Origin: an uncultured Candidatus Saccharibacteria bacterium
GTDB lineage: Bacteria > Patescibacteriota > Minisyncoccia > Phycocordibacterales > UBA9973
Direction of reading: 5' to 3'
Length of the DNA: 61,096 nucleotides
Assembly (NCBI GenBank): GCA_964482735.1
Contig: CAYZYV010000003.1
Location: forward strand, 1-61,096
Below the pieces are notes generated by a model. It made no database searches. It saw nothing but the letters and a program-made list of their open reading frames with translations, and was not told the DNA's origin. The stretch's first letter is position 1, and each line of letters begins with the position of its first letter. Shown in pieces: positions 6,126-23,566 of this stretch. Both the position numbers and the translations under genes were made by a program.

Positions 6126-6194
6126 ATTGGTGTCGTGTTTGCTTCCTTCTATTCGTGTCATTCGTTTTCATTCGTGGATTGGTGTCGTGTTTGA
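6126..6194 (+). repeat. Dispersed ~50-bp repeat family, array A
   Basis: ATTCGTGTCATTCG-N4-CATTCGTGGATTGGTGTCGTGTTTGA; the same unit recurs at 15.7, 18.1 and 19.3 kb. Confidence 0.9.
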
Positions 6195-18446: not shown

Positions 18447-19274
18447 ATGAATAACCAAAAAGACACACAAAGGACAACAACAAATAGTTACGGACAACTA
18501 GATGTCTCTGATGTAAAAGCCTTATCTGGTATAGCTGTTTATGGGCTTACAAACAAAAAGACAGAAAAGTTGGTCACTGCACTTTATCTCGTATCTGATT
18601 GTATGGATACAGATGATGCACTCAAGAGTAAGATTAGATTATTAGGGGTAGAATTATTGTCCGATATCTACCAATACTCTGTATTATCACCAGTCGAAAA
18701 ATCCTCATTTGTCGCCACTCCTATCTCTCGAGTTTACGAACTCCTTTCCTTCATTGAAATAGCAAAAACGATTGGTTTTATCTCTGAGATGAATGCAAGT
18801 ATTTTGAACCATGAATTCTCTAAATTAGCTGTTGATTTGAGAGAGAGTGTAAGCAAAGATCGACACTTTTCTTTCACTCTTGATGACAAGATGTTTGAGG
18901 TTGGTGATGATGTATCTGAAGATTTACAAAAGGGTAATCAGAGTCTATCAAGGACATCTGAAAACATGTCCGTTAGAAATTTTGCACACAATCATTTGAC
19001 CAATAACGTCTCTTACAAAGACCAAAGGTTTGATAAGAAAGAGACAGCTAAAAAGACACTTTCTCATCTCCAAGGACCAGCCGCTAGAGAAGATAGAATT
19101 AAGAGGATTATGAGCCTCATCAAGGACAAGAAAGATGTTTCAATAAAAGACATATCAATCTTCCTTCCAGACTATTCAGAAAAGACAATTCAGAGAGAAT
19201 TAAACGGACTCGTAGATAAAGGACAAATCAAAAAGACAGGAACTAAGAGATGGTCTCGCTACAAACTCGCATAG
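18447..19274 (+). CDS. Hypothetical protein with C-terminal DeoR-like wHTH and helical N-terminus
   Basis: C-terminal RIMSLIKDKKDVSIKDI...SEKTIQRELNGLVDKGQIKKTG.KRWSRY. Confidence 0.75.
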   Translation: MNNQKDTQRTTTNSYGQLDVSDVKALSGIAVYGLTNKKTEKLVTALYLVSDCMDTDDALKSKIRLLGVELLSDIYQYSVLSPVEKSSFVATPISRVYELLSFIEIAKTIGFISEMNASILNHEFSKLAVDLRESVSKDRHFSFTLDDKMFEVGDDVSEDLQKGNQSLSRTSENMSVRNFAHNHLTNNVSYKDQRFDKKETAKKTLSHLQGPAAREDRIKRIMSLIKDKKDVSIKDISIFLPDYSEKTIQRELNGLVDKGQIKKTGTKRWSRYKLA

Positions 19275-19294
19275 TCAAATCCTAATTTGTTCCT

Positions 19295-19440
19295 ATTCGT
19301 GTCATTCGCTTTCATTCGTGCATTTGTGTCGTGTTTGATTTCTCCCATTCGTGTCATTCGTCCCCATTCGTGTATTTGTGTCGCGTTTGAAACCTATTCG
19401 TGTCATTCGCCCCCATTCGTGTATTTGTGTCGCGTTTGTC
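19295..19440 (+). repeat. Dispersed ~50-bp repeat family, array D (3 units)
   Basis: Units at 19295, 19347 and 19396 (periods 52 and 49 bp). Confidence 0.92.
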
Positions 19441-19564
19441 CTCTTTACTTATCCACACCCCATAAATAGCCATATATATTTGCATATTTATTTACGCGAG
19501 TATATAATATATGCATATATTATCGTTGCTGGTAATTATTTATCGAATATGGTAATATATGATA

Positions 19565-20165
19565 TCTCGTAGTTCTACTGCGGGAAGAGAAGATCATTGA
19601 AAATTTAATACCAAAAAGTGTTAATACCAAACAGTTTTTGGCGACAGTTTTTTACACTTCACTTCGGTGATGGGTAAAGACTATTATTACATTTTCTTTG
19701 GTCGGATCCGTTTTGATTTCACAAAGTTTGATTTCAAATTTTTGATCAACACTCAATATTTTTGATAGAGGAAATAGAGAGTTTAAATCTAAAAGTTTGT
19801 ATTACATTTTTTGAAAATCAAAATGTGTATCGGCCCTGTCGACAAGGCAGATATGCTTGTCACACTCTTCAATTATATTGAGGGGATGGCTAAGCAGATT
19901 TTTGTTTAGTTTACGACTCTAGATTTTGTTTCCATTTCGTTTTCATCTTTTTTATCTGACAACTACTTTTGATAGAGAGGTTGTGAAGAGGATAGGAAGA
20001 TCATAAACTTGGTTACGAGGTTTAGATGTTTAGTAAAAAATTATTAGTGATGTTTCATTGCTAGTAATTAAAAGATACACACACATTAGTTTTTTTCTTT
20101 AAGTACATATTTTTTAGCAGTCGTACTTAATGATAAGTCGGAACTAATCTAAACGTGTATAAATT
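19565..20165 (+). ncRNA. Candidate long structured leader or ncRNA upstream of the S-layer-like gene
   Basis: No long ORF; many hairpins (TCAC-TTCG-GTGA, GACAAGGCA-GATA-TGCTTGTC) and nested stems at 20075-20160. Not matched to a known family. Confidence 0.45.
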
Positions 20166-20172
20166 ATAAAAT

Positions 20173-21909
20173 ATGTCAAAGAAATTTTTAGCCGGAGTTT
20201 TCGCAGTAGCTGCATTCGCATTCGCAATGACAGTATCTGCTGCTTATGATTTCGGTGCTACTACTCTACGAGTAGGAAGCAAAGGAGAAGCTGTCAAAGC
20301 TGTTCAAACAGTTGTTGGCGCAACTCCAGTAGATGGAATTTTTGGAGCTATGACCAAAGCGAAAGTTATGGCATGGCAAGCAGCTAATGGTTTAGTAGCA
20401 GACGGAGTATTCGGTCCTGCATCTAAAGCAAAAGCTAACGCAACAGTTGTAACACCTACAACTCCTACAACACCTACAACTCCTACAACACCTACAACAT
20501 TGAAAGGTGGAGCAGGAGACTCTTCTATTAGTGCTTATTCAACAGGTTTGAAGAAAGACCTTAAAGAAGGAGATGAAGATGTTAAAGTATTGGGTGCTAA
20601 AATTGAAGCTGACGGTTCAGATATCGCAGTTAATAGTATTAAAGTAGAACTTAAAGGAGTAGGAACAAGTTCAACAAAAGTTTCAAAGTATGTTGAATCA
20701 GTAGATATCTACAAGGGTTCAGAAAAAGTAGGATCTGCAGATGTTTCTGACTTCTCAAAGGATGGAACAACTTACTCAAAATCAATAGCAACAGATGATG
20801 CTGTTGTTAAAGATGGAGACAAGGATGCTTTCTACGTAGTATTTAATGCTGCAAGCAGCATAGATGATAAGGATAATGGTAAAGACATTGATGTTTCTAT
20901 CGTTTCTTATAGATTCCAAGATGCTACAGGTGTAGTTTCAACAACTACAAAGACATTAACAAAGACAGTTAACCTTGATCTATCAAACACTTCTTCAGTT
21001 ACAATGAAGTCTTCTTCAAACAATCCTGAAAAAGCAACTATAAAAGTTGATGACAAGGATGTAACAGACGACGTATTAGCATTAGCTTTCAAGCTTGATG
21101 TTGATGATGATTCACAAGATCTTAAGTTAACAACTCTTCCTATCGTATTAACATTTGCAAACAACAGCACAGCAGAAGATTTTGCTGAGCAAGTAGTTGA
21201 TTCAGTAAATGTTAAGATTGATGGTGATGAATTTGAAGCAGAACTTAAAGTTGATGAGACAACAAACGGAGCAGGAAAGGCAATTTACGTTGCTGATCTT
21301 GAAGACGAAGATATAACTATTGAAGCTGGAGATGTTGTAGAAGTTAAAGCATACATCTCATTCAACGGCCAAGATGATTATGCAAATTCAACTACAGTTA
21401 CTGCATCAGTTGAAAATAGTGCTGGTCTATTTACTGACTCAGACTACAATACAGCTGCAGAAGTTGAAATCGTACTTGAAGACGAAGATGGTGACTCTGT
21501 ATACCTAGATGCTACAAAGACTGGTGGAGTATTAACTCTAAGCCAATCTCCAGCAGTTATTTCTTCAGTAACAGCTTCAAGTAAGACTGACAATAATTCA
21601 AAGATTGCTACATACACATTCAAGTTTACAGCTGAGGCTGATGGAAGTGATGTAACATTGACAAGTTCAACAATTGATACAACACCAGATGTTAATGGAA
21701 CAACTATTAAATTCAATATTGTGAAGAATAGTGGTACAGCTGTAACAAGTGGTGATGGATACAAGGTTGAAGATGGTAACAAGGCTACGTTCACAGTTAC
21801 TTACACTATTACAAGTGCTACAGGAGGAACATATTCTATGACTCTTGATAGCATTGATGGTGTTCAAATTGATGAAACAGCTGGACCAGAAACAATCGTT
21901 GCTGCTTAA
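20173..21909 (+). CDS. Secreted cell-surface/S-layer-like protein with peptidoglycan-binding domain
   Basis: Signal peptide; LRVGSKGEAVKAVQ...DGIFG..T...V.AWQ..NGL.ADG.FGP (PG_binding_1); (TPT)n linker; acidic beta-rich repeats; biased codon usage typical of high expression. Confidence 0.8.
   Translation: MSKKFLAGVFAVAAFAFAMTVSAAYDFGATTLRVGSKGEAVKAVQTVVGATPVDGIFGAMTKAKVMAWQAANGLVADGVFGPASKAKANATVVTPTTPTTPTTPTTPTTLKGGAGDSSISAYSTGLKKDLKEGDEDVKVLGAKIEADGSDIAVNSIKVELKGVGTSSTKVSKYVESVDIYKGSEKVGSADVSDFSKDGTTYSKSIATDDAVVKDGDKDAFYVVFNAASSIDDKDNGKDIDVSIVSYRFQDATGVVSTTTKTLTKTVNLDLSNTSSVTMKSSSNNPEKATIKVDDKDVTDDVLALAFKLDVDDDSQDLKLTTLPIVLTFANNSTAEDFAEQVVDSVNVKIDGDEFEAELKVDETTNGAGKAIYVADLEDEDITIEAGDVVEVKAYISFNGQDDYANSTTVTASVENSAGLFTDSDYNTAAEVEIVLEDEDGDSVYLDATKTGGVLTLSQSPAVISSVTASSKTDNNSKIATYTFKFTAEADGSDVTLTSSTIDTTPDVNGTTIKFNIVKNSGTAVTSGDGYKVEDGNKATFTVTYTITSATGGTYSMTLDSIDGVQIDETAGPETIVAA
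20452..20499 (+). repeat. In-frame 9-bp tandem repeat encoding the Thr-Pro-Thr linker
   Basis: (ACA/ACT CCT ACA) x5. Confidence 0.85.
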
Positions 21910-22843: not shown

Positions 22844-22894
22844 ATTTTTAAAATATTACACCACATTTGAATAGCCATGTGTTATAATCAAAAC

Positions 22895-23566
22895 ATGACA
22901 ACTAGAAAAGTCTCTTTTGCACCGGGAGAGTTTTATCACGTATATAATCGCGGTAATGACAAGCGAGAGATTTTTCATGACCAACAAGATTATTCTTATT
23001 TCTTAAAAACCTTAAATATTTTTAATACTAAGATGAGTCTGCGCCTTCGATATGTGTCGAAGGATTTTTTTATTTGCAACAATAATCCCGGACTTGTCTC
23101 CATCGGTTGCTATTGCTTAATGCCTAATCATTTTCATCTTTTAATCACACAAACAGAAGATGGAGATATTTCAAAATTCATGCAGAAAGTCATGACTTCC
23201 TATGTGATGTATTATAATCAAAAATACAAAAGAACAGGGTCTTTGTTTGAAGGTAAGTTTAAATCAAAACATATTGGTGATGATAGGTATTTTAAATATT
23301 TATTTTCCTATGTGCACTTAAACCCAATAAAATTAATAGAACCTAAATGGAAAACAGAAGGAATTAAGAATCAAGAAAAAGCCTTAGAATTTTTGGAAAA
23401 ATATGAATACTCTAGTTATGGGAAATATGCAAAAGGAAAAGATAAATATAACATACTCAATACATCTGTTTTCCCAGAATATTTTCCAACGAAAGAATTA
23501 TTTAAAAAAGATATCTTTGATTGGTTAACCTATGGTGATGAATGCTTAGCTGACGAAGGAGGATAA
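22895..23566 (+). CDS. REP-associated tyrosine transposase (RAYT, Y1/HUH family)
   Basis: YHVYNRGNDKREIF, YCLMPNHFHLL (HUH), LFEGKFKS, Y.HLNP and YEYSSY motifs; flanked by REP palindromes. Confidence 0.92.
   Translation: MTTRKVSFAPGEFYHVYNRGNDKREIFHDQQDYSYFLKTLNIFNTKMSLRLRYVSKDFFICNNNPGLVSIGCYCLMPNHFHLLITQTEDGDISKFMQKVMTSYVMYYNQKYKRTGSLFEGKFKSKHIGDDRYFKYLFSYVHLNPIKLIEPKWKTEGIKNQEKALEFLEKYEYSSYGKYAKGKDKYNILNTSVFPEYFPTKELFKKDIFDWLTYGDECLADEGG

Follow-up and report, generated by a model that had tools for sequence, protein, structure and literature searches.

A modular mRNA leader of at least 636 nt with a probable boxA precedes a presumed surface-protein gene in a bacterium of the candidate phyla radiation

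The DNA analysed here (the window) is a stretch of 61,096 nt, positions 1-61096 of contig C3 in the genome of an uncultured Candidatus Saccharibacteria bacterium (630 kb, 99.9% complete, 34% G+C; labelled G000), a member of the candidate phyla radiation (CPR). Between the gene for a winged helix-turn-helix (HTH) protein, P0001, and the gene for a peptidoglycan-binding surface protein, P0002, both on the + strand, lies an intergenic gap of 898 nt (19275-20172). Analysis of this gap showed that it contains the 5' leader of the P0002 mRNA, which extends from 19537 or further upstream to 20172 and thus measures at least 636 nt. The leader is conserved, present in single copy, syntenic and structured on the + strand, and in RNA libraries it is continuous with the coding sequence. 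Its 5' module is probably an rRNA-type boxA signal. The explanation that we favor, at a probability of roughly 0.55, is a cis-acting leader that recruits Nus factors for transcription in the style of rRNA operons and continues with modules for protein binding, stabilization and translation. The leader as a whole belongs to no described RNA family.

The region had been singled out from the letters of the DNA as about 600 nt that lacked an open reading frame (ORF) and could form several hairpins in an RNA, and this description held up. The ORFs within 19565-20165 encode only 32-39 amino acids (aa) and begin with GTG or TTG. No reading frame was kept among relatives, because the best-conserved block contains a 1-nt indel between species (ATGT-GTATCGG versus ATGTGGTATCGG) and its ATG was absent from one relative, so a small protein-coding gene was rejected. 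The predicted fold of 19565-20172 on the + strand had an energy of -168.2 kcal/mol, compared with -121.0 +/- 6.1 for 20 dinucleotide shuffles (z = -7.75), and the - strand gave -105 kcal/mol (z = -3.0). A search of the whole window against Rfam, the check suggested in the original prediction, found no match in the leader region at the gathering threshold, and matches at E-values up to 10 were chance matches far below the thresholds. The same search on the loci of 18 relatives produced three sub-threshold chance matches and nothing real. The families that the leader does not match include OLE, GOLLD, ROOL, HEARO, raiA, EAR, 6S, RNase P, tmRNA and the riboswitches.

Collinear islands of similarity were detected by blastn in 28 of the 36 same-genus genomes, and in other families there were marginal matches only (3 of 24). 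The best island, block B, was found by blastn in 65 of the 93 genomes of the genus, and in 49 of the 64 high-quality ones, at about one copy each. Sixty leader sequences of the genus were compared: the window, the loci of 19 relatives, and 40 sequences fetched around block B; about 35 sequences from other families were inspected in addition. In the first 19 relatives' loci, the HTH gene was present in 18 and the PG_binding gene downstream in 16, with a gap of 630-1100 nt; in other families the intergenic region was 378-1279 nt long. The flanking proteins are about 32-59% identical over the best tblastn segments, whereas 26-34 nt within the gap show no difference between any of the sequences. 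The order of the elements, GATCATTGAAA (boxA), core B, M5 anchor and ATG, was constant in the 60 sequences (the M5 anchor being found in 55), while the spacings along the leader varied from 106 to 392 nt and from 99 to 462 nt. Parts of the leader recur in other families of the order, namely family f55 and, for the boxA motif, eight of 28 further families.

Twenty-eight of the 93 genomes had no match to block B, and five of these were examined. In three (G001, G012 and G115) the locus stopped soon after the P0001 gene, probably at a contig end. The leader of G110 had diverged and kept boxA, M1 and the GAUAGA hairpins, and in G010 none of the leader motifs was found with the patterns used. Contigs of metagenome-assembled genomes (MAGs) of this genus often break in or beside the leader (L010, L017, L021, L152-L154 and others), and the locus is under-represented in assemblies as a result. 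Since several contigs end at the locus, the absence of the leader from an assembly should not be taken as loss. The variable parts of the leader in some relatives, such as the M1 insert and the stretch before M5 in L011, L014 and L015, contain runs of heptamer-like repeats (TAATTCT/TAATTCG...).

Covariation among homologues, which the original prediction had proposed to look for, was found in two modules. In M5, aligned in 47 sequences, 15 of the 23 pairs showed compensatory changes and 95.8% of the cells were paired; none of 500 shuffles reached any of five measures, and sliding the partner by 1-3 columns left 27-45% paired. The nested stems ATACAC/GTGTAT, ATTAGTT/AACTAAT and AAGTAC/GTACTT that had been picked out from the letters just before the start codon correspond to M5 and are therefore genuine. 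The module also holds a conserved unpaired AGUCGAA, and ends 12 nt before the AUG. No Shine-Dalgarno (SD) sequence precedes the start codon, as is usual in this genome, where only 26 of 359 long ORFs have an SD-like 4-mer between -20 and -4 and positions -11 to -2 are A-rich.

In M1, compensatory changes were seen at 10 of the 11 pairs of the inner hairpin. For the whole module 92.4% of the cells were paired, 0 of 500 shuffles reached the covariation score, and the slid controls were 36-52% paired. The outer helix (GAUCAUUGAAAA with UUUUCnUUGGUC) was 90-94% paired and showed no compensatory change among members of the genus, whose sequences consequently neither prove nor refute it; one compensatory change relative to family f55 was judged by eye. 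Several hairpins that had been named at the outset turned out not to be the conserved ones. The C(UUCG)G hairpin at 19651-19678 is present and part of the minimum free energy (MFE) fold, but it was conserved only in the two closest relatives of the window (L037 and L042) among the 60 sequences. A long-range pairing of CTCGTAG (19566) with TTACGAG (20013) found no support: a local hairpin (19565-19585) has CTCGTAG as its 5' arm, and the region around TTACGAG was not conserved in an alignment of 20 leaders. The CTTCAAT/ATTGAGG hairpin can form, but it is variable and its sequence is not conserved.

Evidence for transcription came from public RNA libraries. Twenty-four RNA-type runs from 13 studies held 6-24% of the sampled words of 19300-21900. 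Contigs of four of these runs, from four studies, were aligned; the word shares of the other 20 are no evidence of habitat or expression, and contig depth was not used for expression level. Three of the four aligned runs (X2, X5 and X7, from three studies) had contigs on 19537-20199. One contig of X2, 383 nt long and without any difference, spans 19817-20199 and so passes through M5 into the coding sequence, a contig of X7 covers 19835-20165, and further contigs lie over 20170-21890. In X2 and X5, which are from two studies, contigs begin at 19537 and 19538. The fourth run, X1, covered the coding sequence only and with many differences, which indicates that its contig came from a relative. No contig of the four runs lay on 18900-19536 or after 21890, and such uncovered parts prove nothing.

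No terminator-like site was found in a scan of 19100-20400, and the stretch before M5 contained no conserved promoter in 20 aligned leaders. The same scan on the leaders of 54 relatives gave matches in 24, which were motif hairpins followed by interrupted U-rich sequence; a control region gave matches in 11 of 37, so the scan is not discriminating. The original prediction was to be abandoned if homologues lacked covarying structure and transcription started close to 20173. Instead, covariation was present, and RNA-library contigs, the metatranscriptome coverage that had been suggested as a check, covered the leader and ran into the coding sequence.

Two conserved promoter sequences precede the leader. 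The pattern of promoter P1, TTGCAT with at most one mismatch followed after 16-18 nt by TAKAAT, was found in 48 of 59 genus leaders. The extended -10 element near 19550 that had been noticed in the window alone, here promoter P2, proved to be even more widely kept (56 of 59), and its median distance to boxA was 45.5 nt. A transcript from P2 would start near 19565. The RNA contigs begin 3' of P1, which is a weak hint of a 5' end at 19537 or further upstream, and these contig starts together with the conservation of P1 suggest that P2 is not the sole start. When the 46 nt 5' of boxA were folded in the 60 sequences, nearly all formed a hairpin of about -9 to -17 kcal/mol that ended 0-8 nt before boxA. 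The structure of this hairpin recurs in relatives and its sequence varies; against mononucleotide shuffles, z was below -2 in a share of 0.95 of 59 sequences, at least one of which was a segment too short to give a valid value. Upstream of the promoters, TTATCCACA(C/T) was kept in most of the 20 aligned leaders and in family f55. This motif, identical to the DnaA-box consensus, often occurs as GGCTGTTATCCACAGG and has 28 copies in the 630 kb (for example at 19449, 22203, 22834, 23623, 31033 and, on the - strand, 18105). For ten of the 28 copies, an ORF of 100 aa or more begins 40-200 nt further downstream, compared with 7.5% of random positions.

The case for a boxA signal begins with conservation. 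The motif GATCATTGAAA, with at most one mismatch, lies 5' of core B in all 60 genus sequences, and the boxA-like motif is invariant over 12 nt in all of them, whereas its pairing partner in M1 varies. The layout of the leader, a promoter and a hairpin and then AAGAUCAUUGAAAAUUUAAUAC, is also that of the organism's own 16S rRNA leader, where a TTGACT-17-TATAAT promoter and a hairpin are followed by CUUUCUUUGAAAUUUUAAUAGG. The same promoter-hairpin-boxA layout was present in the 16S leaders of G000, G020, G024 and G061 (..UCUUUGAAAUUUnAAUAG), and the 23S leader in the window (32133) has a hairpin and then AUGAUAUUUGAAAACUGAAU and carries AUGAUAUUUGAAA. The element of the surface-protein leader and that of the own 16S leader are identical at 15 of 19 positions. 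The own 16S 19-mer has 29 matches at up to four mismatches in 1.26 M positions, the leader site being among them, and a motif derived from the leader, 16S and 23S sites has four matches in the genome. G146, of family f55, carries GACAA in the 16S leader and again in the leader of the surface-protein gene; in G470, of the same family, and in G000, the two leaders have GAAAA/GAAAU. The rRNA genes available in f55 were 16S in two of five genomes and none usable for 23S, the other f55 MAGs having no assembled rRNA genes; a weak large-subunit match in G146 was dropped because it proved not to be an rRNA leader. Beyond f55, eight of 28 further families had the strict boxA motif on the coding strand in the 1.5 kb that follow the P0001 homologue, against none on the other strand and one and one in the upstream 1.5 kb. 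The genome encodes NusB (PF01029, C3:68160-68549) and NusG (PF02357, C4:130581-130889).

Likeness to boxA sequences of other bacteria contributes less. PMC13753749 describes B. subtilis rrn operons in which a small 5' hairpin is at once followed by a boxA-like consensus, AUGAUCUUUGAAA, that binds NusB; of its 13 positions, the surface-protein leader matches 11 and the 23S leader 12. This likeness was dropped as stand-alone evidence because it is at chance level in an AT-rich genome; the argument for boxA is instead built on the place of the element, its invariance and its likeness to the own rRNA leaders. The consensus GYTCTTTAANA, as used in PMC5725501, is matched at 8 of 11 positions. According to the same paper, BoxA acts outside rRNA, in mRNA leaders, at suhB, and it acts at CRISPR arrays as well (Stringer et al. 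2020, as cited in PMC13753749).

In this genome the 16S gene (C2:140497-142038) and the 23S gene (on C3) are unlinked, and each has its own promoter, hairpin and boxA. The 23S gene (32321-35881) is interrupted, chiefly at 35022-35240: the match to model positions 2307-2632 ends at 35022, two tRNA genes follow within the 23S span (35073-35149, and 35160-35233, a tRNA-Glu UUC according to ARAGORN), and the whole-window match runs on to model position 2925 at 35881, so that it covers 3561 nt in the window although the model has 2925. The presence of tRNAs inside the insert suggests excision by tRNA-processing enzymes.

A number of observations weigh against the explanation that we favor. The genome has 67 sites that match the B. 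subtilis 13-mer at up to two mismatches, compared with a mean of 50 in shuffled genomes. The motif with four matches was built from the same three sites that it recovered and is thus circular, and the joint change of rRNA and leader boxA is a single event, observed with two f55 genomes. Once the RNA is complete, the boxA is predicted to pair within the M1 outer helix, so it could be no more than a helix strand. The RNA-binding domain of Rho was not found in this 99.9%-complete genome, and the classical purpose of boxA, blocking Rho on untranslated RNA, consequently does not apply. PMC13753749, a paper of 2026, stresses that bacteria in which Rho is dispensable or absent retain the Nus network. 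Neither Hfq (PF17209) nor CsrA (PF02599) was found in the genome, and both were rejected as partners of the leader for this reason. Block B and M5 have been replaced in at least one member of the genus, G110. Finally, the RNA-library contigs show neither strand, ends nor single transcripts, and RNA libraries can hold DNA.

Downstream of the boxA, the leader contains hairpins with constant loops. GATAGA occurred 186 times in the 60 leaders (2-6 copies each), compared with two occurrences of its reverse complement. A stem of at least 5 bp directly flanked 121 of the 186 copies, against 5% of random positions, and 118 had the context UU-GAUAGA-GA. The stems are unrelated in sequence, and such a combination of a fixed loop with stems that keep changing is characteristic of recognition hairpins. 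These hairpins also occur downstream of hairpin B, close to M5. Elsewhere in the genome TTGATAGAG had seven forward and two reverse sites, compared with one and four for a reversed control; a clear hairpin was present only at the two leader copies, and a regulon defined by this motif was rejected.

The other constant element is hairpin B, which was identical in 20 of 20 sequences and, in a larger alignment, in 38 of 38 (38 of the 60 being aligned). Its pattern, searched with up to three mismatches in 401 genomes of the order, was found only in the genus and in six f55 genomes, and a reversed control gave one match. The f55 variants differ either at two unpaired positions or by changes from C-G to U.G and from G-C to G.U, which indicates that the hairpin is kept only on the + strand RNA. 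A stem of GACAAGGCA with TGCTTGTC that had been proposed for this part of the leader can pair over 6 bp (GACAAG/CUUGUC, 9-nt loop) but is not a conserved stem: GACAAGGCA is part of the 3' half of hairpin B and the TGCTTGTC arm is lacking in several relatives, so that this is at most an alternative pairing. By eye, UGCUUGUC could pair with either B or a downstream AAGCAGA-type segment. The coordinates of all features are collected in Table 1.

Table 1. Features of the leader and its flanking genes in the window
Feature	Position	Strand	Remarks
P0001 (275 aa)	18447-19274	+	upstream syntenic gene; C-terminal winged HTH
TTATCCACA motif	19449-19457	+	upstream of promoter; apparently a general promoter-proximal motif of the genome
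Promoter P1, TTGCAT, 17-nt spacer, TATAAT	19480-19508	+	consensus scan, 10/12 matches
Promoter P2, extended -10 TGGTAATAT	19550-19558	+	TGnTAnnAT in 56/59 genus leaders
5'-proximal hairpin	19565-19585	+	9 bp, UCU loop; MFE fold; begins a few bases after P2
boxA-like element AAGAUCAUUGAAAAUUUAAUACC	19590-19612	+	putative NusB/S10 site; also 5' strand of M1 outer helix
M1	19592-19703	+	outer helix GAUCAUUGAAAA/UUUUCUUUGGUC, inner hairpin, lineage-specific insert hairpin
M1 inner hairpin	19611-19641	+	constant loop AAUACCA, freely changing stem
M1 insert hairpin with C(UUCG)G	about 19648-19683	+	seen only in the window, L037 and L042
GAUAGA-hexaloop hairpin, copy 1	19757-19776 (loop 19764-19769)	+	
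Invariant hairpin B UAUCGGCCCUGUCGACAAGGCAGAUA	19828-19853 (26 nt)	+	UCGA loop, one C.A mismatch, one 1x1 loop
Region after B	19854-19932	+	UGCUUGUC (19854-19861), variable hairpin (19865-19885), block C
Conserved block C (GUUUAGUUUACGAC...)	19904-19932	+	alignments
GAUAGA-hexaloop hairpin, copy 2	19960-19983 (loop 19971-19976)	+	
M5	20075-20160	+	four nested helices: AUACAC/GUGUAU, AUUAGUUUU/GAAACUAAU, variable P3, apical P4
A/U-rich unpaired spacer and start codon	20161-20175	+	ATG at 20173; without Shine-Dalgarno
P0002 (578 aa)	20173-21909	+	signal peptide, PG_binding_1, Pro-Thr linker, Thr/Asp/Ser-rich part of ~450 aa

The two flanking genes were also characterized. P0002 matched Pfam PF01471 (E = 1.7e-8) and is presumed to be an abundant surface (S-layer-like) protein. 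In P0001, searches by sequence of Pfam, NCBIfam and the PDB found the HTH only (Pfam HTH_DeoR, E = 1.3e-4, residues 217-264). An AlphaFold2 model of this protein, with a predicted local distance difference test score (pLDDT) of 73 overall and above 90 for residues ~40-130, consists of an N-terminal four-helix bundle, a disordered linker of ~50 residues and a winged helix that also resembles Z-alpha domains. Foldseek against the PDB matched the bundle to 2gsc and 2rld (target TM 0.8, E = 1.4e-3), which are four-helix bundles of the '23S rRNA intervening-sequence protein' type. Homologues of P0001 were present in 94 of 100 genomes from other families, so it belongs to the core genes of the order. 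The protein could be a partner of the leader, to which position is its sole tie.

Directly after the P0001 gene, and as a matter separate from the leader, the window contains three tandem repeats of ~50 nt (CCYATTCGTGTCATTCG...CATTCGTGTATTTGTGTCGCGTTTG; 19292-19438), which take up the first 165 nt of the gap. Related copies were found at 12 further sites in the genome, including 15715-15811, 18136-18220, 6126-6194 and sites on C1 and C4, and relatives have ordinary GC-rich terminator hairpins at this position instead. An ORF for a Y1 transposase of the IS200-like type (22877-23566) could be related to these repeats. Further along the window, a ribosomal protein L10 leader (RF00557) at 29236-29374 scored 44.3 bits against a gathering threshold of 44.

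Under the explanation that we favor, transcription would be started by the tandem promoters P1 and P2. The nascent RNA would form the 5' hairpin first and would then expose the boxA-like sequence, which, by analogy with the own 16S and 23S leaders, would load NusB-S10 onto RNA polymerase together with NusG and NusA. The polymerase would thereby pass in an rRNA-type mode, resistant to pauses and terminators, through the long, untranslated and highly folded leader and on into a gene with very high expression. Formation of the long-range M1 helix may be aided by the tethered boxA as well. Since there is no Rho to counteract, the benefit would be rapid elongation that resists pauses and hairpins, along with help in folding the leader. 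More speculatively, the GAUAGA hairpins and hairpin B are putative protein binding sites that could serve control or protection, and M5 may insulate or shield the start region, which is unstructured, A-rich and SD-less, on its 5' side and may stabilize the mRNA.

An alternative is a structured cis-acting leader in which a protein or ligand controls stabilization or translation and Nus factors have no part. GAUCAUUGAAAA would then be a helix strand or the site of some other factor, and its likeness to boxA would arise from AT-rich composition. The pairing of the motif with UUUUCnUUGGUC at 90-94%, the chance-level count of B. subtilis consensus sites (67 versus 50 in shuffles) and the failure to find Rho in the genome all fit such a leader, and the invariance of hairpin B, like the constancy of the loops, points to specific binders of a different type. 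It is harder to reconcile with a motif whose 12 nt are the same in all 60 leaders although the partner strand varies, that directly follows a promoter-proximal hairpin as in the own rRNA leaders, and that resembles the own 16S element over as many as 19 nt. The occurrence of the motif on the coding strand in eight of 28 other families, against 0-1 in the controls, and the GACAA/GAAAA state that a leader has in common with the rRNA leader of the same genome also argue for boxA, and we consider a leader free of Nus factors possible but doubtful. A bolder proposal, which we regard as unlikely, goes beyond recruitment of Nus factors and sees an order-wide ribonucleoprotein switch, in which boxA, the GAUAGA array (in the role of the nut boxB) and hairpin B would assemble Nus factors and a lineage-specific RNA-binding factor, possibly P0001, on RNA polymerase. 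If this were true, the surface-protein mRNA would be made and matured like rRNA, and the leader would found a class of large structured RNAs that is new and has a partner protein new to science as well.

The original prediction had suggested a new class of RNA that was either cis-regulatory or an independent non-coding RNA. The contig that bridges leader and coding sequence and the lack of a terminator and of an inner promoter support the first of these and not the second. An independent RNA would be a CsrB-like sponge with GAUAGA hairpins that is transcribed from P1 or P2 and ends before M5, with a promoter for the gene near 20050-20075. Repeated constant-loop hairpins in 2-6 copies are indeed typical of sponge RNAs, and 16 nt of the P2 region are repeated at 20055-20070, but RNA contigs run across 19817-20199 in X2 and 19835-20165 in X7, and 19100-20400 holds no terminator-like site. 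In the 54 relatives' leaders the terminator-like matches were motif hairpins only, with poor U tracts, no promoter is conserved ahead of M5, CsrA and Hfq are not encoded, and GAUAGA hairpins continue downstream of B near M5. Altogether, an independent sponge is distinctly improbable. The claim of a new class stands only in part, since the 5' module resembles the known rRNA-leader arrangement of hairpin and boxA and several of the hairpins named at first are not the conserved ones. It is very hard to believe that the conservation acts on DNA, with operators for the winged HTH protein or other factors at block B, which is nearly palindromic around TGTCGACA, and at the other islands. Block B is a near-perfect inverted repeat, covariation cannot speak on it because it never varies in the genus, and a winged HTH gene always adjoins. 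Operators would not account for the compensatory changes in M1 and M5, for the extreme strand asymmetry (186 versus 2 GATAGA copies; z of -7.75 versus -3.0), for f55 variants of B that pair as G.U on the + strand and would be A.C on the other, or for the presence of the region in RNA libraries.

The leader can be described as a very long and modular leader of an envelope-protein mRNA in CPR bacteria that probably opens with a boxA, and it shares features with several known systems. Like the antitermination signal of rRNA operon leaders, it has in order a promoter, a small hairpin and a boxA-like sequence. It is unlike that signal in that its boxA precedes a protein gene, ~580 nt upstream of the start codon, in that pairing of the boxA strand into a helix is predicted for a later stage and Rho is seemingly lacking, and in that modules follow which rRNA leaders do not have. 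Non-rRNA BoxA elements, described for the suhB 5' untranslated region, other gamma-proteobacterial genes and CRISPR arrays (PMC5725501; Stringer et al. 2020, as cited in PMC13753749), provide a parallel for a candidate Nus site in a non-rRNA transcript, in one case ahead of a long untranslated RNA. The CRISPR-array BoxA blocks Rho, which is not detectable here, and the suhB BoxA is close to the start codon and represses, whereas the leader boxA is far from the start codon. The leader differs further from these cases in belonging to a CPR lineage and to a surface-protein gene.

Long stabilizing 5' leaders, of tens to a few hundred nt, and tandem promoters are known from the mRNAs of S-layer and outer-membrane proteins. 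The present leader agrees with them in the abundant envelope protein, the tandem promoters, the 5' hairpin and a structured element before the start, and differs in its length of at least 636 nt, its boxA, its repeated constant-loop hairpins and its invariant hairpin. Several hairpins with the same loop on unrelated stems, in variable copy number, recall the CsrB/RsmZ RNAs; unlike these and CsrA-bound leaders, the loop is GAUAGA rather than GGA, the genome has no CsrA gene, and the hairpins are part of an mRNA leader. RNA elements for processive antitermination include the lambda nut site, with boxA and boxB and the N protein, EAR, and the LoaP leaders. A boxA and constant-loop hairpins before a long transcription unit for an envelope component are reminiscent of these elements, but no Rfam family (EAR included) matched and no N-like or LoaP-like factor was identified. 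A literature search, whose coverage did not extend to subscription journals, found no report that joins boxA and S-layer. Patescibacteria were not mentioned in the boxA/NusB reports that it listed, and nothing on the element appeared under CPR non-coding RNA or surface layers.

The CPR (Patescibacteria) comprise a large and almost uncultured part of bacterial diversity in which RNA-based regulation is little known, and this leader is among the few large (~0.6 kb) CPR non-coding elements with proven conserved structure. The protein encoded behind it is probably the envelope protein of highest abundance and, as such, of importance for the attachment life-style of these cells. The GAUAGA array and the invariant hairpin can serve as baits for CPR RNA-binding proteins. 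If the boxA reading is true, rRNA-type Nus transcription would have been recruited for a protein gene in an organism without Rho. This would bear on what Nus factors and boxA are for where Rho is lacking, the candidates being speed, pausing and RNA chaperoning.

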